From Thermoanaerobaculia bacterium (GTDB taxonomy: Bacteria > Acidobacteriota > Thermoanaerobaculia > Gp7-AA8): a DNA stretch of 64,000 nucleotides. Below, piece by piece: positions 2,616-59,202 of the stretch. Positions within the stretch are counted from its first letter, which is position 1. Every line of letters starts with the position of its first letter. The stretch spans positions 1,606 to 65,605 of the forward strand of contig DATEZA010000319.1 of assembly GCA_035255945.1 (NCBI GenBank), given 5' to 3'. Position numbers and translations under genes: made by a program. The notes below the pieces were generated by a model, which had not been told where the DNA came from, searched no databases, and saw only the letters and a program-made list of their open reading frames with translations.

Positions 2616-5366
2616 ATGCCCACTCGCACCATCGCGATCCGCGGCGCACGGACTCACAACCTCAAGAACGTCAACGTCGAGATCCCGCAGCGCCAGCTGA
2701 CGGTCATCACCGGTCCGTCCGGCTCCGGAAAGTCGTCGCTTGCGTTCAACACGCTGTACGCCGAAGGTCAGCGACGCTTCGTCGAATCGATGTCGACGTA
2801 CGTGCGGCAGTTCCTGGAGCGGATCGATCGTCCCGACGTGGACGAGATCGACGGAATCCTGCCGGCGATCGCGATCGAACAGAAGAACTCGGTGAAGAAC
2901 GCGCGCTCCACCGTCGCGACCGCCACCGAGCTCGCCGATCACATCCGTCTCTTCATGACGTATTGCGGCGAGACGTGGTGCGCCGACTGCCAGACGAAAG
3001 TGCGCAAGGAATCGCCGGAGTCGATCACCCGCGAGATTGCATCGACGCTCGCGGACAAGCGCGTCGTCGTGCTCGCGCCCGTCTTCTTCGAAGCGGCGAA
3101 TCGCAGCGAAGTGCTCGTGCAGCTGATCAAAGCGGGCTACTTCCGCGCATGGATCAACGGCGCGGTTGCCGATCTGAAGGAAGTGGAGACCGACGGCTTC
3201 ACGTCGCTCGAGATCGTCATCACGCGGCTGCGCGTCGATGAAGAGAAGCGCTTGCAGATCACCGAAGCGATCGAGCAGGCGTTCGAGATCTCCAAGGGCA
3301 CCGTGAACGTGCTCGAAGAGACCGAGGAAGGCTGGCACTCGCATCGATTCACATCGCGCTTCGCGTGCAACAAGTGCGGGAACGAGTTCATCGAGCCGAC
3401 GCCGCACCTCTTCTCCTTCAACTCGCCCCTCGGCGCGTGCACGGTCTGCCAGGGCTACGGCCGGATCATCGGCATCGACATGGAGAAAGTGATTCCGAAT
3501 CGCGCGCTGCGGCTCGACGAGCAGCCGATCGCGCCGTGGAACTCGGCCGGTTACGAAGACTGCTACGAAGACCTCGAGAAGGCTTCGAAGAAGTACGGCC
3601 TGCGGCTCAATGTACCGATCAATCAGCTCACGCCCGCGGAGTGGGAGCTGCTCTACAACGGCCGCAGCAAGTGGTACGGCATCAAAGGCTTTTTCGACTG
3701 GCTGGAGACGAAGAAGTACAAGATCCACGTCCGCGTGAAGCTGGCGAAGTACCGCAGCTACGAGCCGTGTCCCGACTGCCACGGCTCGCGATTGAAGAGC
3801 GCGGCGAACAACGTGAAGTTCCGCGACCTCTCGATTGCGCAGCTCTTCGCGATGGATGTGAAAACGGCGCGGCGATTCTGGGAGTACCTCCCGCTCGACC
3901 GCCACGAGGAAGCGATCGCCGGACATCTCCGCCGCGAGATCGTCAACAGGTTGACCTATCTCGACGAAGTCGGATTGTCGTACCTCACGCTCGATCGCCA
4001 GACGCGCACGCTGTCCGGCGGCGAGGCGCAGCGCATCAACCTCGCGGCGGCACTCGGATCGTCGCTGACCGAGACGATGTACGTGATCGACGAGCCGACG
4101 GTCGGCCTGCACGCGCGCGACAGCGAACGGCTGCTCGCGGTGCTCAAGCGCCTGCGCAATGCGGGGAACACGGTGATCGTGGTGGAGCACGATCCAACGA
4201 TCATCGCCGGCGCGGATCACAACATTGAGATCGGGCCGGGGGCGGGGGAGTACGGCGGAGAGATTCAATATGTGGGGAAGCCGCGCGCTGTGGACAACGG
4301 GTCCTTCGCCGTCGTTGCGGCTCAGGATGACACCTCGTCGGGACACATCAAGATCCGTAACGCGCGCGAGCACAACCTCAAAGGCGTCGACGTCACGATC
4401 CCTCTCGGCAAACTCGTCGCGCTCACCGGCGTCTCGGGCTCGGGTAAATCGACACTCATCCGCAACTGCCTGTTCAATCGCTACCAGCGCGACGTCCGGG
4501 GCACGAACGGTCTCGATGTCGGTAAGAGCGAGCTCGAAGGGACGGAGCTGATCTACGACATGGAGTTCGTCGATCAGTCGCCGATCGGCCGCTCCTCGCG
4601 CTCCAATCCCGCGACCTACATCAAGGTCTGGGACGACGTCCGCAAACTCATGTCCGAGACCACCGGCGCGAAGCTCAACGGCGTCACCGCCGGCATGTTC
4701 TCGTTCAACACGGAAGGCGGACGCTGCGAAACGTGCGAAGGCGCCGGCACGGTGAAGATCGACATGCAGTTCCTCGCAGACGTCGAAGTGATCTGCGAGA
4801 AGTGCAACGGCCGCCGCTTCGGCGAGCAGGTGATGAAGGTCCGGTACAAAGGTAAAGATGTTGACCAGATCCTGAATCTCACCGTCGACGAAGCGACGAA
4901 GTTCTTCATCGACAAGCGCGGTGTCCTCAAGAAGCTCGCCTCGCTCCGCTCCGTCGGCCTCGGTTACCTCCGCCTCGGACAATCAACCGACTCGCTCTCC
5001 GGCGGCGAAGCGCAGCGGCTCAAGCTCGCGTCGTTCCTCGCGGAATCCGCAGCGAAAGCGAACGAGAACGGCGGACGCCTTTTCCTCTTCGACGAACCGA
5101 CGACCGGCCTCGCGGCAACCGATGTCGCGCAGCTCATCACCACCTTCCGCGATCTCCTCGACCGCGGCAACTCCGTGCTGGTGATCGAGCACAACCTGCA
5201 GCTGATCGAAGCCGCGGATTACGTGATCGATCTCGGTCCGGAGGGAGGCGACGGAGGCGGCGAGGTGGTCGCAGTCGGGACGCCGGAGGAGATCGCGGCG
5301 AATCCGCGATCGATCACCGGACGGTATCTCGCGGCGTCAGCGACGATTCGCAGCGTGTCATCCTGA
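2616..5366 (+). CDS. uvrA: Excinuclease ABC subunit A (UvrA)
   Basis: The 916-aa product has the N-terminus [33 protein letters not shown]. It carries two ABC ATPase modules (LSGGEAQR twice) and zinc-finger cysteine clusters. Confidence 0.95.
4280..4330 (+). repeat. In-frame copy of one arm of the GTCATCCTGAGC-type inverted-repeat element, inside the uvrA coding sequence
   Basis: About 52 nt (ccgcgcgctgtggacaacgggtccttcgccgtcgttgcggctcaggatgacac) match the right arm of the element at 5395-5452 with only a few mismatches. The segment encodes [11 protein letters not shown] in the UvrA inter-module linker. Confidence 0.6.
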
Positions 5367-5452
5367 GGTGCGAAGACACCGAAGGACCCGTGACTTCACA
5401 CGCTGCGCGCTCACGTTACGGGTCCTTCGCCGTCTTCGCGGCTCAGGATGAC
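5357..5452. repeat. Family-A dispersed inverted-repeat element (termini GTCATCCTGAGC ... GCTCAGGATGAC), about 96 bp
   Basis: Arms of about 38 bp (gtcatcctgaggtgcgaagacaccgaaggacccgtgac / gttacgggtccttcgccgtcttcgcggctcaggatgac) flank a short centre. The left arm supplies the uvrA stop codon (gtg tca tcc tga = VSS*). Confidence 0.8.
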
Positions 5453-5463
5453 AAAATCACGAC

Positions 5464-5940
5464 GTGAACATCCTCGCCATCACCGGCAGTCTCCGCTCCG
5501 CATCAAAGAACACGCAACTCCTCCGCGCACTCGCCGCACTCGATCCATCGATCACGCTCTACGAAAAAATCGGCGAGCTTCCGCACTTCAACTCCGATGT
5601 CGACGACGCCGGCGCACCGCAGCCGGTGCTCGATTACCGCGAGCAACTTCGCGCAGCCGGCCTCGTCGTCATCTCGTCGCCCGAATACGCGCACGGCGTT
5701 CCGGGCGTGATGAAGAACGCGCTCGACTGGGTGGTCGGCAGCGGCGAGCTGATCGACAAGCCGATCGTGCTGATCAACACGTCGGCCGCATCGAAATTCG
5801 TGATCCCGCAGCTCGCGGAGACGCTGACGGTCATGTCTGCAAAAGTGGTCAAAACGTGCACGATATGGCCGCTCGTGGAGACAGAGTTGCGGGCCCTCAT
5901 CGAGCAGATTCACGCCGAAATGACCGCTCGTTCCGTGTAA
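5464..5940 (+). CDS. NAD(P)H-dependent FMN reductase family protein
   Basis: The 158-aa product begins (GTG)NILAITGSLRSASKNTQLLRALA and contains SSPEYAHGVPGVMKNALDW, a pattern typical of the NADPH-dependent FMN reductase / flavodoxin-like fold. Confidence 0.7.
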   Translation: MNILAITGSLRSASKNTQLLRALAALDPSITLYEKIGELPHFNSDVDDAGAPQPVLDYREQLRAAGLVVISSPEYAHGVPGVMKNALDWVVGSGELIDKPIVLINTSAASKFVIPQLAETLTVMSAKVVKTCTIWPLVETELRALIEQIHAEMTARSV

Positions 5941-13914: not shown

Positions 13915-14296
13915 GGAGCGCGGACGTCTCGTCCGCAGTCGCTGCGCGTCTCGCGCGGCGACTTTATGCCCGTGCTCCGCAGGACACCACGTAGTCGCGA
14001 TGCGGCGACTTACCTGCGTGCCAGGCGAGACGCCTGACACGTGCGGGCAAGATGCCCGCGCTCCGAGGGACACCACGTCGTCGCGATGCGGCGCGCGGCT
14101 CGTGCGCTCACGCTGTGGAGCGCGGACGTCTCGTCCGCAGTCGCTGCGCGTCTCGCGCGGCGACTTTATGCCCGTGCTCCGCAGGACACCACGCGGTCGC
14201 TATTCGGCGACTTACCTGCGTGCCAGGCGAGACGCCTGACACGTGCGGGCAAGATGCCCGCGCTCCGCGGGACACCACGTCGTCGCGATGCGGCGC
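13893..14296. repeat. Tandem duplication (2 x 202 bp) that includes the 3' end of the DUF3999 gene; each unit holds two copies of a 43-bp sub-repeat
   Basis: The unit starting ggagcgcggacgtctcgtccgcagtcgctgcgcg at 13915 recurs at 14117. The sub-repeat atgcccg(t/c)gctccg..ggacaccacg..gtcgcgatgcggcg occurs four times, near 13955, 14050, 14157 and 14252. Confidence 0.8.
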
Positions 14297-14645: not shown

Positions 14646-14722
14646 GGCCCTCATCCGGCCTTCGGCCACCTTCTCCCCGCAAGCGGGGCGAAGGTCAATG
14701 GTGCCGAAGGCGGGTGAGGGGC
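14646..14722. repeat. Family-B hairpin element (core TCTCCCCGCAAGCGGGGCGAAGG flanked by imperfect outer inverted repeats)
   Basis: ggccctcatccggccttcggccacc ... ccccgcaagcgggg ... ggtgccgaaggcgggtgaggggc is followed by TTTT. It abuts the stop of the minus-strand gene 14726-15988 and probably acts as a terminator. Confidence 0.75.
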
Positions 14723-15988: not shown

Positions 15989-16029
15989 GAAAACCTCCTG
16001 AATAGCAGTAAGCACGCCTATCGCGTTGT

Positions 16030-16124
16030 GTCATTCCGAGCCGCGAAGACGGTCGAGGAATCCCCTGCCGAAGCACGATGAGCGCTCCGTCGGCAGGGGA
16101 TTCCTCGACTTCGCTCGGAATGAC
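16030..16124. repeat. Family-A inverted-repeat element (variant termini GTCATTCCGAGC ... GCTCGGAATGAC)
   Basis: Arms of about 45 bp (gtcattccgagccgcgaagacggtcgaggaatcccctgccgaag / cgtcggcaggggattcctcgacttcgctcggaatgac) lie between the guaD stop and the start of the secreted repeat protein. Confidence 0.75.
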
Positions 16125-17549: not shown

Positions 17550-19481
17550 TCACTTTCTCAAGACGTCAATTCGCCAGCTGAATTGGTCGACGAGCTTTTC
17601 CGTCCACCCTTCTTTTTTGAAGGCGATGCGTCCTTGCGGATCGAGGAACCAGGTGGTCGGGTATGCGAGCACGCCCGATCGATGCGCCCAGCCATCGTCG
17701 AGAAGGACCGTGAAATCGTAGTGATTGTCTGTCATCCATTGACGCACGATGGACGGATCGCCGTCCGTGTCGACGGTCACAATCCGCACCCGATCGTCGT
17801 CCGCATAGCGCTTCGCAAGCTTCACGATGTCGGGCATTTCCTTCACGCACCAGCCGCACCAGACGCCCCAGAAATTCACAACCGCGACCTTGCCCTTCAA
17901 ATCGGCAAGCGAGAGCGTGCGGCCGTCGAGTGTCTTCAGACGGAACTCGGGAGCACGCACCGGTTTCGCGATGCGCGACTCGAGCACGCGCTGCTTGCTC
18001 GCCGCCGTTCCGTTCGAATCGACACGCACGAGATACGCATCGAAGCCGGCGAGCGTCTTGTGCTTGCGTCGATAGAGCGCTTCGAGCGCGGCGCGATTCG
18101 GATTCACGCCGTTCGTCTGCAGAGCTAATCCCTCGCGGTAGAGCTGCTCCGCCTCGGTGATCTGCTTCTCTGCTTCATACGTCCGCGCGAGGTGGTAGAC
18201 GATCGCCGCGCTCTCCGGATAGAGCTCGCGCGCGGCGAGGATCTCCTTCTGCGCCGCGCTCGTGTTGCCGCGCGCGAGCCAGACCCAGCCGAGCGTGTCG
18301 TGCACCATGCCGCGAAGGTACCGCTCCATACGCTCGCGGGACTCCGGCGGGTCGTTCTGAAATCCGAGCAGATAGCGCTCGTTGAGATCGATCAACCTGC
18401 GCGCGACACGATCGGCGTAAACGAGGTCGAGCTTGCGGTCGGTGAGCTTCTGCACGGCGGAAGAAAGCTGCGGCACGTAGTTGACCGTCAGCGGAATGTT
18501 GTGCACCAGCGCGACGAGCCGCGCATCGTCCTTTTCATCGCGCAACAGCACCGAGCTGGCGGTGGCGATGGCATCCGGATCGCGGCGGTACGGGTAATCG
18601 AGCACGTCGCGCCACGTCGCGTTCGACTTCGCGCGCGACATCAGCACGGTCAACGCCTGCGCGCTCGCCGGCGCTTCGCGCAGGATGCGGTCCTGCACCT
18701 CGCACATACGATCGTTCATCTTCAGCTGCTGATAGCCGCGCGCGGCGAGCGACAACACGTACGGATCGCCATCCGAATCGCGAATCCATGCTTCCAGCTC
18801 GGCGGCATTCGGGAGTTGCAGCGCCATGACATAACGCGACAGCTTCGCGGCGCTCTCGAGCAACGGCTTCGCTTCATCGCGACGCCGAATCTGTTTCAGC
18901 ATCGAGCCGAGACGGTTAAGCGCGGCGATGTTCGACGGATCGATTTTCAGCGCTTCGCGATACGCCGCGATGGCCGGCTCGTCCTGCAGCATCTCGCCCT
19001 TCGCCACCCACACCCGCGCGCTCGGCGGAACCGCGTCGAGCAGGCGCATGGCGGCGTCGTGCTCGGCGATGCTGTTCAGCGCAACCGCGCGCGCGATGAC
19101 CAGCGCTTCATCCGTTTCGGATGCGAGCTTCTCCGCGGCGAGCTTGTTGTCGTCGAAGTGATCGAGATCCTCCCGATACTCATGAGCGATGGCGAACCAG
19201 GTCCATGCGCTCTCCGGATGCGTCGCGCGCATCTCCTCCGCGAGGCGCGTGGCTTCGAGGTCATCGATGTGCTGCAGATTCCGGATGAACCAGGCGTGCT
19301 GTTCGTCGGACGCCCCATCGGCGGCGGCGGAAAAATCAAACCTCTCGTATGCCTGCTGCTGCAAGGTAGTGGTCGTGGTGGTGTAGGGCAAGCTCTCAGC
19401 TTGCCCCTGTGACAAGCTGAGAGACGATGACAAGCTGAGAGCTTGTCCTACACTGGCGGCTAGGAAGAAAAGCGCAAGCAT
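17550..19481 (-). CDS. Exported TPR-repeat protein fused to a C-terminal TlpA/ResA-like thioredoxin domain (WCGWC active site)
   Basis: The start was chosen at MLALFFLAASVGQA (a signal peptide). A central helical TPR region is followed by a C-terminal VAVVNFWGVWCGWCVKEMP thiol-disulfide oxidoreductase motif. Confidence 0.65.
   Translation of the reverse strand: MLALFFLAASVGQALSLSSSLSLSQGQAESLPYTTTTTTLQQQAYERFDFSAAADGASDEQHAWFIRNLQHIDDLEATRLAEEMRATHPESAWTWFAIAHEYREDLDHFDDNKLAAEKLASETDEALVIARAVALNSIAEHDAAMRLLDAVPPSARVWVAKGEMLQDEPAIAAYREALKIDPSNIAALNRLGSMLKQIRRRDEAKPLLESAAKLSRYVMALQLPNAAELEAWIRDSDGDPYVLSLAARGYQQLKMNDRMCEVQDRILREAPASAQALTVLMSRAKSNATWRDVLDYPYRRDPDAIATASSVLLRDEKDDARLVALVHNIPLTVNYVPQLSSAVQKLTDRKLDLVYADRVARRLIDLNERYLLGFQNDPPESRERMERYLRGMVHDTLGWVWLARGNTSAAQKEILAARELYPESAAIVYHLARTYEAEKQITEAEQLYREGLALQTNGVNPNRAALEALYRRKHKTLAGFDAYLVRVDSNGTAASKQRVLESRIAKPVRAPEFRLKTLDGRTLSLADLKGKVAVVNFWGVWCGWCVKEMPDIVKLAKRYADDDRVRIVTVDTDGDPSIVRQWMTDNHYDFTVLLDDGWAHRSGVLAYPTTWFLDPQGRIAFKKEGWTEKLVDQFSWRIDVLRK
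19381..19452. repeat. Nested palindromic cluster inside the 5' coding region of the TPR-TlpA gene
   Basis: gggcaagctctcagcttgccc and gacaagctgagagcttgtc are perfect hairpins (8-9 bp stems), flanked by gtgtagggcaagct / agcttgtcctacac. They encode the low-complexity peptide GQALSLSSSLSLSQGQAESLP. Confidence 0.7.
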
Positions 19482-20502: not shown

Positions 20503-21480
20503 ATGAACACGGACGAGAAGGAACGGCAGGCGCTGGTACAGGCGCTGGTCGCGGAGCTTTCGGCCGCCGAGCCGCTCCATCTCGACTACGAGCTGATCGA
20601 GGCGTACGTCGACGGGCGCTGCGACCTGATCGATCAGGAGATCGTCTCCTCGCATGCCGCGATGTGCCCGATGTGCGGCCGGGAAGTGCGGGATCTGCAG
20701 ACATTTGCGGCCCAGCACCGGCGTCCGCGCCGGAACTGGCTGCCGCTCGCCGCGGCGGCGATCGCCGCCTGCCTCATTCTCGCCATTCTTCCGCTGCTCC
20801 GTCCTTCCGCAACGGTGCTTTCGCTCCACGACGGCAATCGGGAAGTGCGGCTCACGAAAGACGGGCAGCTCTCCGGCATCAGCGGTCTGACCATCGACGA
20901 CGAGCGGCGGATCGCGAACGCCTTGCGCAGCGGCATGGTCGGGATCCCGCCGAACGCCGCGCAGCTCGCAAAAACGGGCGAGGCGCTGCGCTCGACATTC
21001 CCCGCCACGCCATCAGCGTTCGAGCCGCTGGCCCCGATCGGATGCATCATCGTCAGCGACAGGCCGACCTTCGAATGGACCGCCGTTCCCGGAGCTCTCT
21101 ATCGCGTGGAAGTTTTCTCCGACCACTTCCGTCCGGTCGCGGACAGCGGTCCGATCGACGAAACGCGGTGGACCACGCCGCAGCCACTCGCGCGCGGCAC
21201 GACGTACGTCTGGCAAGTGACGGCGCTGCTCGACACAGTCGAAACGACGTCACCGGCGCCGCCGGCCCCCGAGGCTCGGTTCGCGGTGTTGGACGCGGCG
21301 AACGCGCAGGAGATCGCGCGACTCGAGCTGGTGCAGCCGCGTTCGCATCTCGCGCTGGGCGTGGCGTACGCCTCAGCGGGTGTGACGGCGGAAGCGGAGC
21401 GCGAGCTGCAGGAGCTGGCGAACGAAAATCGCGGCTCGGCCGATGCGCAGCGCTTGTTGCAATCGTTGCGCTCGCACTGA
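20503..21480 (+). CDS. Zinc-binding (ZAS-type HxxxCxxC) transmembrane anti-sigma factor with a periplasmic C-terminal domain
   Basis: The start MNTDEKERQ is preceded by GAGG. The product has the HAAMCPMC motif, a single TM helix (WLPLAAAAIAACLILAILPLL) and a C-terminal domain of about 230 aa. Confidence 0.7.
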   Translation: MNTDEKERQALVQALVAELSAAEPLHLDYELIEAYVDGRCDLIDQEIVSSHAAMCPMCGREVRDLQTFAAQHRRPRRNWLPLAAAAIAACLILAILPLLRPSATVLSLHDGNREVRLTKDGQLSGISGLTIDDERRIANALRSGMVGIPPNAAQLAKTGEALRSTFPATPSAFEPLAPIGCIIVSDRPTFEWTAVPGALYRVEVFSDHFRPVADSGPIDETRWTTPQPLARGTTYVWQVTALLDTVETTSPAPPAPEARFAVLDAANAQEIARLELVQPRSHLALGVAYASAGVTAEAERELQELANENRGSADAQRLLQSLRSH

Positions 21481-21482
21481 GC

Positions 21483-21540
21483 GGCCCTCATCCGGCCTTC
21501 GGCCACCTTCTCCCCGCTGCGCGGGGCGAAGGCCAGGGGC
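21483..21540. repeat. Family-B hairpin element, truncated copy
   Basis: ggccctcatccggccttcggccaccttctccccgctgcgcggggcgaagg lies immediately after the anti-sigma stop codon. Confidence 0.7.
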
Positions 21541-21692
21541 GAGCGCTCGCTGCACACGCCATCGACCTCACAAACCAAAATCGCATCGATGAAGCTGCAT
21601 CCGTCGCATTCGACGCGCGCGTTGCCGCTCTCGCATGCAATGACCTGATCGGCGTTGCGCGTGCGGCGGACGCGCAGGGCGTCGTCGCGCGC

Positions 21693-23660
21693 ATGCGCAA
21701 CGATGCTGATGCCGCGCTCGACTACACGAGCGAAGCGCTCGCACTCGGCGAGTTCGCGCACGACACCTTCACGATCGCGCGCGCATGGAGCGATCTCGGC
21801 CGCATCTACTTCGATCTGCTCGAAGACTACGACGCAGCGCTCGCCGCGTATCAGCGCAGTCTCGCGATCAATCCCTCCGATTCGCGCGTGCTGAACAACC
21901 TCGGCAACCTCGCGCGCGCCGAGGGCGACTTCCGCAATGCGATCGCGTACTACAAGCGGAGCGGTGCGGCGGCGAAGAAGGCGAAGGATCGGTATGGCGA
22001 GATCAGCGCGGAGCACAACATCGGACTGGTGTACACGCAGCAGAACGATCCAGCCGCGGCGCTCTTGCATCTGCGACGCGCTCTCGCGATGGATCGCTCG
22101 GCGCGCACGCTGCTGTCGATCTCGGAGGCGGAGCGCGCACTCGGCAACGACGCCGCGGCGTTGCGCGATCTGCGCCGCGCGCGTGCTGCGTCGAAAGATG
22201 ATCTGACGCTTGCGACGATCCTGTTGCGCGAAGGCGATCTGCGGCTCGACCGGCACGATCTCGCCGGCGCAGCGCGCGCGTTCGATCAGAGCATTCGCCT
22301 CGCGCCGACGCCGGCCGCGCTGACGTATCGCGCGCGGTTGCGCCTCGCGCAGAAGCGATACGCGGATGCAGCGTCAATCGCGATCGATGCGGCGAATCGC
22401 GCGAACGATCCCGACACGATCGCGCACGCGCAGTCGATCGCGGGGCAGGCGTATCGCGCGTTGCACAATCGCGACGCGGCGAAACGCGCGTTCAGCGCGG
22501 CGATCGATGCGATCGAGCGCGAACGGCGGCAGGTCGCGGGCGGCGCGGAGTCGCGCGAGCGTTCGTTCGAAGCGAAGGTCTATCCGTATCTCGCGATGGT
22601 CGATCTGCTCGCAGAATCGAACGACGCGCGAGGCGCGCTCGAATACGCGGAGCGCGCGAAGGGACGCGTGCTCGTCGACGTGCTGCAGGGTCGCATCAGC
22701 GTGCCGGCGTTTCGTCTGCAACTGCCCGAGGAAGGCGACGCGATTCTCGAATACGCGGTGAGCGATTCCGCGCTGTACGCGTTCGTCGTCACGCGCGAGG
22801 GCGTGCGCGAGTTCACCACTGTGATTCCGCGCGCGGAGCTCGCCGCGGTCTGCAATCGTTTCGCGAGCGAGCTCGCCAGCCGCAATCTCGCGTTCCGCCG
22901 CACCGCGCGGCATCTGTGGGATCTGCTGCTGGAGCCGGAAGCGCCGCTGCTGCGCGGGAAGAAACGGATTTGCATCGTGCCGGATTCGGAGCTCTGGCGC
23001 GTGCCGTTCCAGGCGCTGATCGATCCGAGCGATCGCTACGTCGCCGACGATGCGGCGATTTTTTATGCGCCGTCGATCGCGGCAATAAGGCCCGGTGTAC
23101 GACAAGCTCTCAGCTTGTCGCCTCTCATCGTCGCCATGCCCGAAGCGCGCAGCGAAGCCGAACAGATCGCCGCGATCTATGCGCCTCGCGCGCATGTCGA
23201 GATCGATGCACGCGAGCAGCTCGTCAAAGACGCCGCGCCGCGTTACGACATCCTCCACTTCGCAACGCACGGCGTGTTCGACGACGACGCGCCGCTCTCC
23301 TCGTACCTCGTGTTCGGACGCGGACGGCTCGAGGCGCGCGAGATGATGTCGATGCACCTCAACGCGCAGCTCGTCGTGCTCTCCGCGTGTCAGACGGCGA
23401 TGGGACGACCCGCGCCGGGCGAAGGGATCATCGGCATGTCGTGGGCGCTGTTCGTCGCCGGCTGTCCGACGATGGTCGCGAGCGAATGGAAAGTCGAGGC
23501 GACGAGCACGTCGGCGATGATGGTCGCGTTCCATCGCAATGTCGCGCAACGCGGGATGTCACCGGCGGAAGCGCTGCGCGCGGCGCAACTCGATGTGCGC
23601 AGGCATTACGAGCATCCGTTTTACTGGGCGTCGTTCGTCGTGTTGGGGCGGGGGTGGTGA
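21693..23660 (+). CDS. TPR-CHAT protein (paralogue of 182-2587); the N-terminus is possibly truncated or uses a non-canonical start
   Basis: The first ATG lies after the family-B element. The open frame continues upstream with protein-like sequence but no ATG/GTG/TTG. The C-terminus has HFATHG, LSACQTA and HPFYWASFVVLGRG CHAT motifs. Confidence 0.6.
   Translation: MRNDADAALDYTSEALALGEFAHDTFTIARAWSDLGRIYFDLLEDYDAALAAYQRSLAINPSDSRVLNNLGNLARAEGDFRNAIAYYKRSGAAAKKAKDRYGEISAEHNIGLVYTQQNDPAAALLHLRRALAMDRSARTLLSISEAERALGNDAAALRDLRRARAASKDDLTLATILLREGDLRLDRHDLAGAARAFDQSIRLAPTPAALTYRARLRLAQKRYADAASIAIDAANRANDPDTIAHAQSIAGQAYRALHNRDAAKRAFSAAIDAIERERRQVAGGAESRERSFEAKVYPYLAMVDLLAESNDARGALEYAERAKGRVLVDVLQGRISVPAFRLQLPEEGDAILEYAVSDSALYAFVVTREGVREFTTVIPRAELAAVCNRFASELASRNLAFRRTARHLWDLLLEPEAPLLRGKKRICIVPDSELWRVPFQALIDPSDRYVADDAAIFYAPSIAAIRPGVRQALSLSPLIVAMPEARSEAEQIAAIYAPRAHVEIDAREQLVKDAAPRYDILHFATHGVFDDDAPLSSYLVFGRGRLEAREMMSMHLNAQLVVLSACQTAMGRPAPGEGIIGMSWALFVAGCPTMVASEWKVEATSTSAMMVAFHRNVAQRGMSPAEALRAAQLDVRRHYEHPFYWASFVVLGRGW
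23094..23121. repeat. Second copy of the palindromic caagctctcagcttg element, in-frame inside the TPR-CHAT coding sequence
   Basis: ggtgtacgacaagctctcagcttgtcgcc parallels ggtgtagggcaagctctcagcttgcccc at 19380. It encodes RQALSLS. Confidence 0.65.
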
Positions 23661-23667
23661 TTGACGC

Positions 23668-23712
23668 GAGCCCCTCACCCCTGACCCCTCTCCCCGCAAG
23701 CGGGGCGAGGGG
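23668..23712. repeat. Family-B hairpin element, variant copy
   Basis: gcccctcacccctgacccctctccccgcaagcggggcgaggggg lies between the convergent genes ending at 23660 and 23715. Confidence 0.7.
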
Positions 23713-29949: not shown

Positions 29950-29956
29950 CGGCCTC

Positions 29957-30051
29957 GTCATCCCGAGCGTAAGTCGAGGGACCTGGGGTGCGGGTGGCAC
30001 GATCAACGCGCCACACGCCCTCCCGGGTCCCTCGACTACGCTCGGGATGAC
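29957..30051. repeat. Family-A inverted-repeat element (termini GTCATCCCGAGC ... GCTCGGGATGAC)
   Basis: The arms gtcatcccgagcgtaagtcgagggacc / ggtccctcgactacgctcgggatgac flank a GC-rich centre. Confidence 0.75.
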
Positions 30052-30144
30052 GCTTACCGGATGGCAATCGGTTCCTGGTCGCGCGCCGTCTTTCCGGACC
30101 GGAAATGCGTCCGCTCAGCGCGGTGATCAACTGGCGCGAGCTGC

Positions 30145-42936: not shown

Positions 42937-43512
42937 GTGGCGGACGAAACCTACAAACGGATCCTATCCCGGGCCGACGAGTTCTTCGACTCCGTGATGC
43001 AGTCGCAGCCCCAGAGCCTGCAGTGCGGCCGCGGCTGTTCCCTCTGTTGTTACGGCCTGTTCGAGATTGGCGCAGCGGATGTTGCGGTGATTGCGGATGG
43101 CCTGTCGAAGCTGAATCCCGCGCGTCGCGACATGATCATCCGGCGCGCGGTCGACATCGTCGCGTCGAGCCGCCATCCCAACCTGCGCGAGTGCTCGCCG
43201 ATCGAGAAGGACGAGTTCTTCGAGCGCACAGCATCGACACCCTGTCCGAATCTCGACGACAGCGGCTTGTGCATGATCTACGAGCATCGCCCGCTCGTCT
43301 GCCGCACGTTCGGACTCCCGCTGCGCGACGGCGCGCGCTACATCGGCGACGTGTGCGAGCTGAACTTCGAAGAGGCGACGATCGACGAAAAGGAATCAGC
43401 CGCGTGGGATCTGCAGTGGGAGGACGCGCTCGGACCGGAAGACGAGTACACGATTCCGGAGGCGATCATCCTCGCGGCGCGCATGCGGAGCTGGCTACGC
43501 GTGTCATCCTGA
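42937..43512 (+). CDS. YkgJ-family cysteine-cluster (putative Fe/Zn-chelating) protein
   Basis: The 191-aa product has CGRGCSLCC and later CxxxC...C motifs. Its stop codon lies within the left arm of the family-A element (VSS*). Confidence 0.65.
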   Translation: MADETYKRILSRADEFFDSVMQSQPQSLQCGRGCSLCCYGLFEIGAADVAVIADGLSKLNPARRDMIIRRAVDIVASSRHPNLRECSPIEKDEFFERTASTPCPNLDDSGLCMIYEHRPLVCRTFGLPLRDGARYIGDVCELNFEEATIDEKESAAWDLQWEDALGPEDEYTIPEAIILAARMRSWLRVSS

Positions 43513-43587
43513 GCTGCGGAGACGGCGAAGGACCCGTTGATCGCGCTCGAGTCACGGTTCTTCGCGCTCTGCGGCGCTCAGGATGAC
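43503..43587. repeat. Family-A inverted-repeat element between convergent genes
   Basis: gtcatcctgagctgcggagacggcgaaggacccgt ... tcacggttcttcgcgctctgcggcgctcaggatgac. Both arms supply stop codons: for ykgJ on the plus strand and for the bactofilin gene on the minus strand. Confidence 0.8.
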
Positions 43588-43958
43588 ACCTTCAGATTCG
43601 CGACGTTGCCGCCCTTCGACTTCTCGCCCATCACGCAATTGCCCTGAAAAATCGCCCCTTCTTCGATGATGAGCGCCGGCGTGTCGATATCGCTGTAGAC
43701 CTTTCCGTTGCGGTGAATCTCGACGCGCTGGTCGGCGACGATCTTTCCGATGACGGTGCCGCTGATGGCGACGCGGCCGACGTGAATGTCACCTTCGATC
43801 TGCGCGCTCTCGCCGACGATGAGCTCATTCTTCGATGTGATCCGGCCGTTGAACCGCCCGTCGATCCGCATCGTGTCCTCGAACTCGAGCTCTCCTTTGA
43901 ATAGTGAGCCGCGATCGAGGAATCCGTTCAGTTCACCGCTCTTGCCCTTCGTCGTCAT
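43578..43958 (-). CDS. Bactofilin (DUF583 cytoskeletal polymer)
   Basis: The 126-aa product has beta-helical repeats (GRFNGRITSKNELIVGESAQIEGDIHVGRVAISGTVIGKIVAD). It overlaps the parB stop by 4 nt and ends VSS* inside the family-A element. Confidence 0.8.
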   Translation of the reverse strand: MTTKGKSGELNGFLDRGSLFKGELEFEDTMRIDGRFNGRITSKNELIVGESAQIEGDIHVGRVAISGTVIGKIVADQRVEIHRNGKVYSDIDTPALIIEEGAIFQGNCVMGEKSKGGNVANLKVSS

Positions 43959-59157: not shown

Positions 59158-59164
59158 CCCAGGT

Positions 59165-59202
59165 GTCATCCTGAGCCGCGCAGACGGCGAGGGACCCGTC
59201 AG
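59165..59202. repeat. Family-A element, left arm only (degenerate copy) in the gyrB-gyrA spacer
   Basis: gtcatcctgagccgcgcagacggcgagggacccgtcag. No matching right arm follows. Confidence 0.6.

Follow-up and report, generated by a model that had tools for sequence, protein, structure and literature searches.

A repeat arm carried in frame by uvrA of a Thermoanaerobaculia genome lies in a linker that different repeat families occupy across the clade

The linker between the two ABC modules of uvrA in a Thermoanaerobaculia genome carries, in frame, one arm of a palindromic repeat, here called family A, which is dispersed through the surrounding DNA. The arm is confined to one lineage, and across the clade many different repeat families are found in the same linker, which turns over from one to another, a point that the original prediction had missed. 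The arm is probably (about 80%) the tolerated remnant of an in-frame insertion of REP type, situated in a spacer that repeats invade, in which they lose arms and in which they are overwritten. In the window's genome it most likely just encodes 12 tolerated linker residues. The window is the whole stretch of 64,000 nucleotides that was analysed; it was compared with 165 uvrA loci from Thermoanaerobaculia, comprising 135 distinct genes and 144 unique linkers. The window's genome is denoted W, and the orthologous uvrA loci bear L-numbers.

The uvrA gene and its inter-module linker

The features of the window that concern uvrA and family A are as follows.

2616..5366, plus strand: uvrA, 916 amino acids, class I architecture (open reading frame and translation)
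4281..4346, plus strand: hypervariable inter-module linker of uvrA (lowest conservation, 72 DNA clusters)
4297..4334, plus strand: solo right arm of a family-A palindromic repeat, in frame (34/36 to 5418-5453)
5356..5453: complete family-A element between uvrA and the FMN-reductase gene (arms 5356-5394 and 5415-5453)
5364..5366, plus strand: TGA stop of uvrA, contributed by the element's left terminus (GTG TCA TCC TGA), as read from the sequence
43501..43589: second complete family-A element, between convergent open reading frames, with palindromic arms similar to those of 5356-5453
59161..59199, minus strand: extragenic solo arm of family A (pattern match)

The encoded protein aligns over its full length with Geobacillus UvrA 2R6F (E=7e-231) and with 3PIH (E=1e-220). 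Precomputed Pfam assignments comprise UvrA_inter and UvrA_DNA-bind (PF17760, PF17755) plus two ABC modules, and the class I complement of two ABC ATPase modules, zinc modules, UvrB-binding domain and insertion/DNA-binding domain is present. Alignment with 2R6F shows that the canonical C-terminal helix of module I (TPEE..NP.SLTGQYL) is missing and that a short variable linker stands in place of this longer segment; a motif of the same type is retained at the end of module II.

Across the 165 orthologues this linker is the least conserved 15-residue window of UvrA, with a top-residue frequency of 0.21 against 0.48 for the next lowest, which agrees with the earlier suggestion that an insertion would be plausible here. 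The accompanying description of the linker as length-variable holds for a few orthologues, which reach up to 156 nt, but most measure 60-75 nt and it is chiefly the sequence that is hypervariable. In an AF2 model, linker residues 559-573 are coil with pLDDT below 50; little weight is given to this, since the whole model is poor (mean pLDDT 67, pTM 0.37). The reading frame is open across the linker in 165 of 166 genes, which carry various repeats, and in the window's uvrA it stays open through the repeat arm.

A solo arm of family A in the linker

Positions 4297-4332 (ACGGGTCCTTCGCCGTCGTTGCGGCTCAGGATGACA) are identical to 5418-5453 at 34 of 36 positions without a gap, and the element-derived stretch extends over 36-38 nt (4297-4334), with the family terminus GATGACAC at its end. 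The in-frame copy within uvrA that had been predicted is thus real, and the intergenic arm, read in the same frame, does encode GSFAVFAAQDD. The match had been put at about 52 nt, which is too long: the upstream extension costs a 1-nt gap and gains only GCYGCGCGCT, which represents conserved Pro-Arg-Ala codons found also in orthologues without the arm (L081, L084) and is, judging by these codons, coincidental.

A search with a 34-nt arm pattern, allowing up to three mismatches, found four sites in the window, at 4299, 5420, 43502 and 59164, and none in 100 dinucleotide-preserving shuffles used as control, which argues against chance similarity. An assembly artefact might be considered, as the window is a contig of a metagenome-assembled genome and repeats are known to cause chimeric joins in assemblies. 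The site nonetheless leaves the reading frame intact, two contigs are on record with the identical protein, and assemblies made independently from different samples show the same arrangement (L082 from JGI, L083 from ENA, and L117). The likelihood that the arm results from chance or from contigs joined at a repeat is accordingly negligible. The left (partner) arm was not found in uvrA, and the linker RNA of the window's gene has no unusual structure (z=+0.59) and no hairpin.

The complete element at 5356-5453 has arms of 39 nt which are 87% complementary and form a near-perfect hairpin (DNA fold -42 kcal/mol, z=-10). This element contributes a stop codon to uvrA, and the one at 43501 gives the open reading frame 42937-43512 an identical V-S-S-stop ending. 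Both complete elements form the stem-loop expected of the REP/REPIN type, the uvrA copy being single-armed. Five family-A arms occur in the 64-kb window, four of them extragenic or at the 3' ends of open reading frames, and 32 were counted in 2.65 Mb of related loci, a dispersed and mainly extragenic distribution like that of REPs. The solo arm at 59161-59199 shows that half elements occur outside genes too. No Rfam family reached its gathering score in the window; searched by E-value, 4200-5560 produced nothing but plant and animal miRNA-precursor models scoring far below threshold, located on the hairpin.

Close relatives and the downstream element

Among close relatives the arm is shared only by L082, L083 and L117. 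The closest orthologues carry unrelated sequence in the same place, so that the segment, as an alignment of orthologues was expected to reveal, is lineage-specific: L081 has a GTACGACAAGCTCTCAGCTTG-type unit, L084 and L086 a palindrome of the form CCCTCTCCCGC...GCGGGCGAGGGG, and L087-89 and L001 a GTAGGACAGGCG hairpin. The nearest relatives differ from W by about 10% of nucleotides in the flanks. Their linkers are exactly 66 nt long, as in W, yet unrelated in sequence, which simple insertion and deletion would not predict; length selection or replacement of the sequence as a patch is needed to account for it. The peptide does not present itself as a feature of genomes that lack the repeat family: L007 and L020, which share it, hold family A outside uvrA. 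It is shared too by L082, L083, L117 and L036, and in the DNA sampled from these loci no family A was found outside uvrA.

One route to the linker copy, raised in the original prediction as recombination between the gene and its downstream element, would be that the arm was copied by gene conversion or recombination from the gene's own 3' flanking repeat. Strand and orientation are the same for the two sequences, which are separated by 1.1 kb, and their 34/36 match is consistent with such an exchange. However, the uvrA arm is equally distant from the copies in the window, matching 5418, 43537rc and 59199rc at 33-34 of 38 positions each, with the downstream copy no closer than the elements at 43501 and 59161. 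In L082, L083 and L117 the arm occupies identical codon positions, yet the repeat 3' of uvrA belongs to another family. The downstream insertion is moreover itself recent, as L081 and L084 keep an empty site in which the uvrA stop codon overlaps the GTG start of the next gene, and the additional upstream similarity consists of the conserved Pro-Arg-Ala codons noted above. Copying from the downstream element is therefore highly improbable, and the link between it and the linker arm was dropped after the comparison with L081, L082 and L084. The junction between uvrA and the FMN-reductase gene also holds different repeat types among relatives, although short-lived synteny restricted this comparison to 11 loci.

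Occupancy and turnover of the linker across the clade

Six repeat loci in the window match the linkers of other orthologues. The repeat elements of other types than family A are as follows.

14648..14694, plus strand: repeat copy of another family (CCCTCATCCGGCCTTCGGCCACCTTCTCCCCGC...), which forms the uvrA linker in L017, L143 and L102
16028..16115: related element (GTCATTCCGAGC...GCTCGGAATGAC), with a match in the linker of L095
19381..19453: GTGTAGGGCAAGCTCTCAGCTTG-type hairpin element, a type present in the uvrA linker of the closest relative, L081
29956..30052: related palindromic element (CGTCATCCCGAGCG...GCTCGGGATGACG), a type which forms the uvrA linker in L008, L051 and L116

Further copies of the CCCTCATCCGGCCTTCGGCCACCTTCTCCCCGC family lie at 21485-21517 and 23671-23712, and the linker of L081 matches a sister copy of the GTGTAGGGCAAGCTCTCAGCTTG-type element, at 23097-23118, at 22 of 22 positions.

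The association extends to the whole set of orthologues. With all UvrA-like DNA masked, and with control segments of the same length kept inside the true gene, 52 of 160 linkers matched DNA outside uvrA-like sequence as against 62 of 1512 controls (odds ratio 11, p=3e-26). Linkers are also more strongly folded than controls (MFE per nt -0.448 versus -0.311, p=5e-34). Strong hairpins (z<-2) are present in 47% of the 144 unique linkers, and 78 of these 144 have a hairpin, an outside match or both. Although the linkers make up only 0.44% of the 2.65 Mb, they contain 30 of its 411 strong hairpins, a 16.6-fold enrichment; no such hairpins were found in the other variable loops of UvrA. The linkers of the 135 distinct genes fall into 72 DNA clusters that cannot be aligned with one another, corresponding to at least 85 changes on the gene tree. 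Where linker pairs can be aligned, their rate of divergence is about 0.7 times that of fourfold-degenerate sites, and many decay at close to the synonymous rate (L084/L086, L028/L029 and L012/L096).

Origin and maintenance of the arm

The most probable sequence of events is that a family-A REP-like palindrome entered the spacer between the two ABC modules in frame and that its partner arm was later lost. The spacer would behave like extragenic space within a gene, the encoded peptide being almost unconstrained. Palindromic repeats of many families would land in it, selection would retain only linkers that keep the frame, contain no stop codon and stay within a tolerable length, and the hairpins would afterwards be reduced to one arm or decay through near-neutral substitution, to be overwritten by other elements. 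As no clearly repeat-free linker occurs among the orthologues, we infer the insertion from family membership and not from a pair of before and after states; the order of events (insertion, then loss of an arm), neutrality and the mechanism of transposition are likewise inferred. With only one arm present, a whole element may never have inserted in uvrA.

The comparison of W with L082 places a limit on this account. Their arms differ at 4 of 37 positions, compared with 11 of 29 in the rest of the linker and 0.33 at fourfold sites (binomial P=0.002), so plain neutral decay of one old insertion is an incomplete description. Besides neutral decay, re-insertion, ectopic gene conversion or constraint at the nucleotide level must act on the arm. 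It is quite possible, if not the favoured solution, that W and L082 share one old insertion which has been kept family-like by ectopic gene conversion from other family-A copies. The two arms agree in register, orientation, frame and linker length, the differences between them fall on a codon that is polymorphic among the family-A copies of the window (GTT, TCC, TTC, TGC), and the linker outside the arm has diverged at the neutral rate. Conversely, a tract of 36-38 nt is short for homologous conversion, and neither a conversion tract nor a donor can be identified in these data. Independent or repeated insertion under length selection may instead explain the resemblance, and would do so within the main reading.

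The prediction of domestication, under which the peptide would have acquired a role, belongs to a wider set of functional explanations: the arm, or a repeat or hairpin in this place generally, might serve as a domesticated linker peptide, might form an mRNA hairpin at which translation pauses between the two ABC modules, might be bound by a REP-binding protein or might modulate the activity of UvrA. Modulation of repair-gene activity by intragenic REPs has been put forward as a speculation by Di Nocera et al. (PMC3733652), who reported REPs in DNA-repair genes of other phyla. The far more frequent occupation of the linker than of other DNA by hairpin repeats would fit a function, as would the conservation of the W/L082 arm beyond the neutral rate, synonymous positions included, and the single orientation and frame of all the family-A linker copies. 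Yet sister lineages freely replace the peptide with unrelated sequence, about half of the linkers, the window's included, have no hairpin, and many alignable pairs decay at roughly the synonymous rate. Conservation at synonymous positions in fact argues against selection on the peptide, and fresh draws from a conserved pool of repeats fit the data at least equally well. A function of the arm or hairpin is thus improbable, and nothing suggests that the peptide was domesticated. What stands of the earlier interpretation is an in-frame, lineage-specific arm of a dispersed repeat in a tolerant part of UvrA; domestication and recombination with the downstream element do not.

The insertion and overwriting favoured here leave one feature unexplained, which counts against them: the seven family-A linker copies, without exception, share one orientation and one frame. 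It is conceivable, though rather unlikely, that the spacer is a landing pad, either because repeats are directed to it, for example into or beside an existing hairpin, so that one repeat draws the next, or because DNA or RNA with a hairpin there is favoured, which might make translation pause between the modules or bind a factor that recognises repeats. If so, the near-constant occupancy of the linker, the dozens of families that overwrite one another in it, the unvarying orientation and frame of the family-A arms and their excess conservation would reflect a mechanism and not mere tolerance.

Relation to known repeats

In-frame REPs in genes, uvrA included, have been published before, as RPEs in Rickettsia and by Di Nocera and colleagues. 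The latter described intragenic REPs tagged with GTAG or CGTC which lie wholly inside open reading frames and keep the frame, singly or as dimers, and which encode about 7-30 residues (Di Nocera, De Gregorio and Rocco 2013, BMC Genomics 14:522; PMC3733652). Many reside in DNA-repair genes, among them uvrA (Oter_2709, with REPs reported at 638-644 and 1601-1623, and Oter_3168 of Opitutus terrae, Tgr7_1444 of Thioalkalivibrio); REP termini also provide stop codons to flanking open reading frames, and tolerance in flexible linkers was proposed (PMC3733652). In genes of the same function the REPs were mostly at different sites, recB of two Xanthomonas species being the exception (PMC3733652). Short in-frame palindromic repeats in uvrA and a repeat terminus serving as stop codon are common to both studies. 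The host phylum differs, however, being here the Acidobacteriota (class Thermoanaerobaculia), and whereas the earlier study dealt with single genomes, the present one follows a single site through some 165 orthologues and dozens of unrelated families. The termini may differ as well: those of family A read (C)GTGTCATCC, which is not a GTAG or CGTC tag in the strict sense. The element at 29956, a related one, begins with CGTCATCC, and other linker families (L087, L001) start with GTAGGACAGG.

RPEs, as far as they are described in PMC10969869 and PMC3733652, are selfish palindromes found in frame in apparently functional genes, whose products they extend by a peptide segment where this is tolerated (Ogata et al. 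2000, Science 290:347). On the same descriptions they are about 100-150 bp long, restricted to Rickettsia and scattered over many genes, unlike the single site in the uvrA linker. Insertion into open reading frames that stay intact is seen likewise in the uvrA arm and in 165 of 166 orthologues. The likeness is claimed for behaviour only, the host being a Thermoanaerobaculia metagenome-assembled genome. We know of no single site reported as repeatedly overwritten by different families.

REPINs are hairpin doublets dispersed through a genome (Bertels and Rainey 2011, PMC3116915), and the REPORTH study found conserved extragenic sites that hold different repeat types in related genomes, which was read as overwriting of REPINs (10.1101/2024.10.14.618302). 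The same pattern is seen in the uvrA linker and at the uvrA/FMN-reductase junction. The REPORTH sites are extragenic, however, whereas the linker lies inside an intact open reading frame and is filtered for frame. No RAYT-like transposase gene was found by a crude motif scan (HUH...Y(3-5)NP regex) of all six frames of the window and the 165 loci, which cover 2.65 Mb and a small part of each genome.

MITEs are defined by terminal inverted repeats and target-site duplications. The family-A arms act as inverted termini, but at 5356-5453, the sole insertion for which an empty site is available (L081/L084), no clear target-site duplication is evident, and the filled site has about 10 extra non-palindromic bases at its right. 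ERIC and other MITEs with open frames are described, in the account given in PMC10969869, as fusing in frame to host open reading frames (Delihas 2007). Family A resembles them as a small mobile in-frame repeat; the families and hosts differ.

Implications

A literature search returned no relevant report of an intragenic REP hotspot, and what seems new is that one coding site has been persistently overwritten throughout the clade. The linker offers a natural, deeply sampled record of the entry, decay and replacement of REP-type repeats at one orthologous site. Its position within an intact gene means that the survivors are filtered for reading frame, and from such a record the rates of insertion, arm loss and overwriting become measurable and the targeting of existing hairpins by repeats becomes testable. 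The published link between REPs and DNA-repair genes is thereby extended to another phylum with far denser sampling.

The linker also shows that selfish DNA can encode nearly the whole of one segment in a well-conserved repair protein. Linker peptides such as RHPLPAERGEG are translated repeats and not protein motifs, and can lead alignments, domain calls and the search for lineage-specific inserts astray.

Some further candidates were set aside. Apparent UvrA paralogues in the flanks were explained by one half of the gene matching the other. L007:1860, L011:4041 and L026:5492, considered as intragenic hairpins, are intergenic, upstream of a HAD-type gene, and read through by spurious open reading frames. 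A generic scan for hairpins within long spanning open reading frames was noisy, most 16-bp matches being due to chance, and only a few cases were accepted.

A family-A arm in the UvrA linker

The source of the window is a MAG of the Thermoanaerobaculia (Acidobacteriota), and NCBI gives this name to the source of an identical protein. The spacer between the two ABC modules of its UvrA, hereafter the linker, is encoded at 4281-4346. The gene and the window copies of family A, a dispersed palindromic repeat, are as follows.

2616-5366, + strand: uvrA, a 916-aa ORF
5356-5453: imperfect palindrome of family A, with arms of 39 nt that are 87% complementary (DNA fold z=-10); right arm 5415-5453
43501-43589: family A, complete copy
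59161-59199: family A, solo arm
16028-16115: related variant
29956-30052: related variant

Window positions 4297-4332, inside uvrA, agree with 5418-5453, in the right arm of the element at 5356-5453, at 34 of 36 bases. When a 34-nt arm pattern was searched for with as many as three mismatches allowed, the window gave four hits and 100 shuffled versions gave zero. This confirms that an arm copy is present in uvrA, although the match is shorter than the roughly 52 nt of the original prediction: the element-derived stretch covers only 36-38 nt (4297-4334) and terminates in the family terminus, GATGACAC. Extension to 52 nt requires a gap and gains only GCYGCGCGCT, the conserved Pro-Arg-Ala codons, which orthologues lacking the arm also have. 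Read in the frame of uvrA, the arm encodes 12 residues, and the intergenic arm does give GSFAVFAAQDD in that frame, as had been stated. In uvrA the arm stands alone and forms no hairpin. The interpretation originally placed on it is only partly supported, as set out below.

Lineage specificity and the downstream element

Thousands of orthologues were recovered by protein search, and the 120 best of them (79-100% identical, 900-941 aa) are conserved throughout except for an unalignable stretch after GPGAGExGG..Y.G.PR and before a conserved 13-residue motif. Among 15-residue windows of a 69-sequence alignment, conservation is lowest at the linker (top-residue frequency 0.21) and next lowest at the C-terminal tail (0.48). 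DNA was compared at 165 orthologous loci (handles beginning with L), from 80 species-representative genomes, 80 metagenome contigs and five contigs of the three closest proteins. The nearest relatives differ from the window by about 10% of flanking nucleotides and form a near-trichotomy. The same arm occupies the same codons in L082, L083 and L117. The arm is lineage-specific, because other repeats lie at the linker of L081 (GGCCCGGCTCTCAGCCGGCC...CAAGCTGAGAGCTTGTCGTAC, a type that the window has at 19381-19453 and 23097-23118) and of the next clades out, L084/L086 (a CCCTCTCCCGC...GCGGGCGAGGGG palindrome) and L087-89/L001 (a GTAGGACAGGCG...CGCCTGTCCTAC hairpin). Among genomes with a checkable same-locus copy (L007 and L020), none carries the peptide without the repeat family, since both hold family A elsewhere.

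The alternative first proposed, recombination between the gene and its own downstream element, lacks support: all window copies are equally distant from the uvrA arm, L082 has the arm yet a different repeat family downstream of uvrA, and L081 and L084 have no downstream element. For the same reasons the element at 5356-5453 is a separate, recent insertion. Its left terminus, GTG TCA TCC TGA, supplies the last codons and TGA stop of uvrA (5356-5366), and the ORF at 42937-43512 has an identical V-S-S-stop ending from the family-A left terminus at 43501-43512. In L081 and L084 the stop codon of uvrA and the GTG start of an FMN-reductase gene overlap, so the insertion has uncoupled the two genes. 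The repeat that follows uvrA in L082, ahead of the next gene, is of the type seen in the window at 13915-14266, a composite palindromic unit, GGAGCGCGGACGTCTCGTCCGCA...GCGGGCAAGATGCCCGCGCTCC, in two tandem copies about 202 nt apart.

Repeat occupancy of the linker across the clade

Four measurements show that the linker is a recurrent home for palindromic repeats. With all UvrA-like DNA masked in the 2.65 Mb of fetched sequence (blastn-short, E<1e-3), 52 of 160 linkers match DNA outside uvrA, whereas only 62 of 1512 controls, segments of equal length taken from these genes, do so (odds ratio 11, p=3e-26); linkers of other orthologues match six different window loci. Folding energy per nucleotide is lower in linkers than in controls (-0.448 versus -0.311; Mann-Whitney p=5e-34), with z<-2 in 47% of 144 unique linkers, and many are near-perfect stems of 20-33 bp belonging to clearly distinct families. 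A hairpin, an outside match or both are present in at least 78 of the 144, a lower bound since about 20 kb per genome was covered. The linkers fall into 72 mutually unalignable DNA clusters among 135 distinct genes, and at least 85 changes of linker state are needed on the tree of flanking protein sequence. Finally, linkers hold 30 of 411 strong hairpins in 0.44% of the DNA, a 16.6-fold enrichment; two other variable UvrA loops have essentially none.

Of 166 genes, 165 keep an open frame across the linker. The remaining one, L160, matches L086 over the roughly 220 nt aligned around the linker, save for one C lost from a C-run of the linker repeat (about 3010), which frameshifts the second half of uvrA; the loss reflects either misassembly at the repeat or a genuine inactivating mutation.

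Tolerance, decay and probable renewal

The alignment of the window's UvrA with the Geobacillus and Thermotoga proteins of known crystal structure runs over the full length, except that a short linker stands where they have a canonical 36-residue segment. At window positions 4230-4350 (about residues 540-577) the canonical helix closing the first ATPase module (TPEEV. type in 2R6F) is missing from the whole clade; module II still ends in the corresponding motif. The repeat-prone linker occupies the place of the module-I helix and the canonical linker. An AlphaFold model from the clade alignment, poor overall (mean pLDDT 67), places residues 559-573 as coil (pLDDT <50) between two strands.

In orthologue pairs with alignable linkers, linker difference is about 0.7 times fourfold-site divergence, several pairs being at parity, which indicates near-neutral decay. 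Some members of the 'PSSLSDSFG' clade have the full GGGACGAGGGA...TCCCTCGTCCC hairpin and others one arm only, and arm loss is therefore a common fate and the state seen in the window. Some linkers contain several arms and reach up to 156 nt (L039, L116, L138); these look like intermediates in which an element inserted next to an older one.

Plain neutral decay does not fit every case. Between the window and L082 the arm differs at 4 of 37 positions and the remaining linker at 11 of 29, and divergence at fourfold sites is 0.33 (binomial P=0.002). Of the four arm differences, three fall in a single codon that also varies among window family-A copies, and the arm's other synonymous positions are identical. 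The same excess conservation is seen in the distant arm carriers L007, L020 and L036, and the 'RGEG' family (L105/L143) shows 3.5% linker divergence against 40% at fourfold sites. Selection on the peptide does not account for this conservation, which includes synonymous positions. Comparison of the copies suggests that the linker repeatedly receives sequence from a conserved pool of repeats, by either re-insertion or ectopic conversion. Two further features do not fit simple neutral decay either: the seven family-A linker copies are all alike in orientation and frame, and in the four closest lineages the linkers, unrelated in sequence, are each exactly 66 nt long.

The arm is probably a remnant of selfish DNA, tolerated within a spacer repeatedly re-used by repeats (probability about 0.8). 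A functional or targeted role for linker repeats is unlikely, but would be the more interesting outcome.

Relation to known intragenic repeats

In-frame palindromic repeats within genes are established, the Rickettsia palindromic elements being the classic case (reviewed in PMC10969869). Di Nocera et al. 2013 (PMC3733652) describe intragenic GTAG/CGTC REPs in many species, many of them located in genes for replication and repair, among which are uvrA of Opitutus terrae and of Thioalkalivibrio, and indicate that the ends of REPs can contribute stop codons and that inserts may be tolerated in flexible linkers. Extragenic conserved-space REPINs replaced, or 'overwritten', by other REPIN types are described in a recent preprint (10.1101/2024.10.14.618302). 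The window's arm is therefore a further instance of in-frame intragenic palindromic repeats. In the literature searched, no description was found of an intragenic site with dozens of unrelated families, class-level conservation and turnover at about 10% divergence. Structure and dispersion support membership of family A in the REP class, its terminal tag GATGACAC departing from a strict GTAG or CGTC; no REP-associated transposase (RAYT) was found by a crude motif scan of the small part of each genome covered.

Other intragenic repeats

Within the ORF at 20664-23660, a TPR-CHAT protein gene, a 22-nt unit (GTACGACAAGCTCTCAGCTTGTC, 7-bp stem) at 23097-23118 occurs unchanged within the uvrA linker of L081. 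The unit is in frame (VRQALSLS), sits just upstream of an HFATHG motif and may be a second in-frame repeat insertion in the window. A second in-frame uvrA site occurs in one lineage only (L077, 3867-3966), where a complete GTTCCTCGGAG-type hairpin (EAVPRSSSGSSGSSEGRQSAEELRGAPRNSEEPV) follows ...NVNVLE in the loop equivalent to EETEEGW of the window's protein. In-frame palindromic repeats also lie within long candidate ORFs of related genomes (L007 4240-4355, L020 2951-3010, L078 10053-10133, and L042 15458-15591 and 20030-20095), and intragenic repeats in the clade therefore extend beyond uvrA. These include family A in a candidate membrane-protein ORF (…CHPEPAKRGEGP…GSFAVFAAQDD…) and other families in ORFs resembling DUF2339 and DUF3999 by position. 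The 3' end of uvrA has also been reshaped by abutting elements, because 23 of 148 C-terminal tails match repeats elsewhere; some orthologues, for example L001 and L008, end in repeat-derived peptides (…HPERSEGSRNGAERIVL*, …RAQDDGSPL…).
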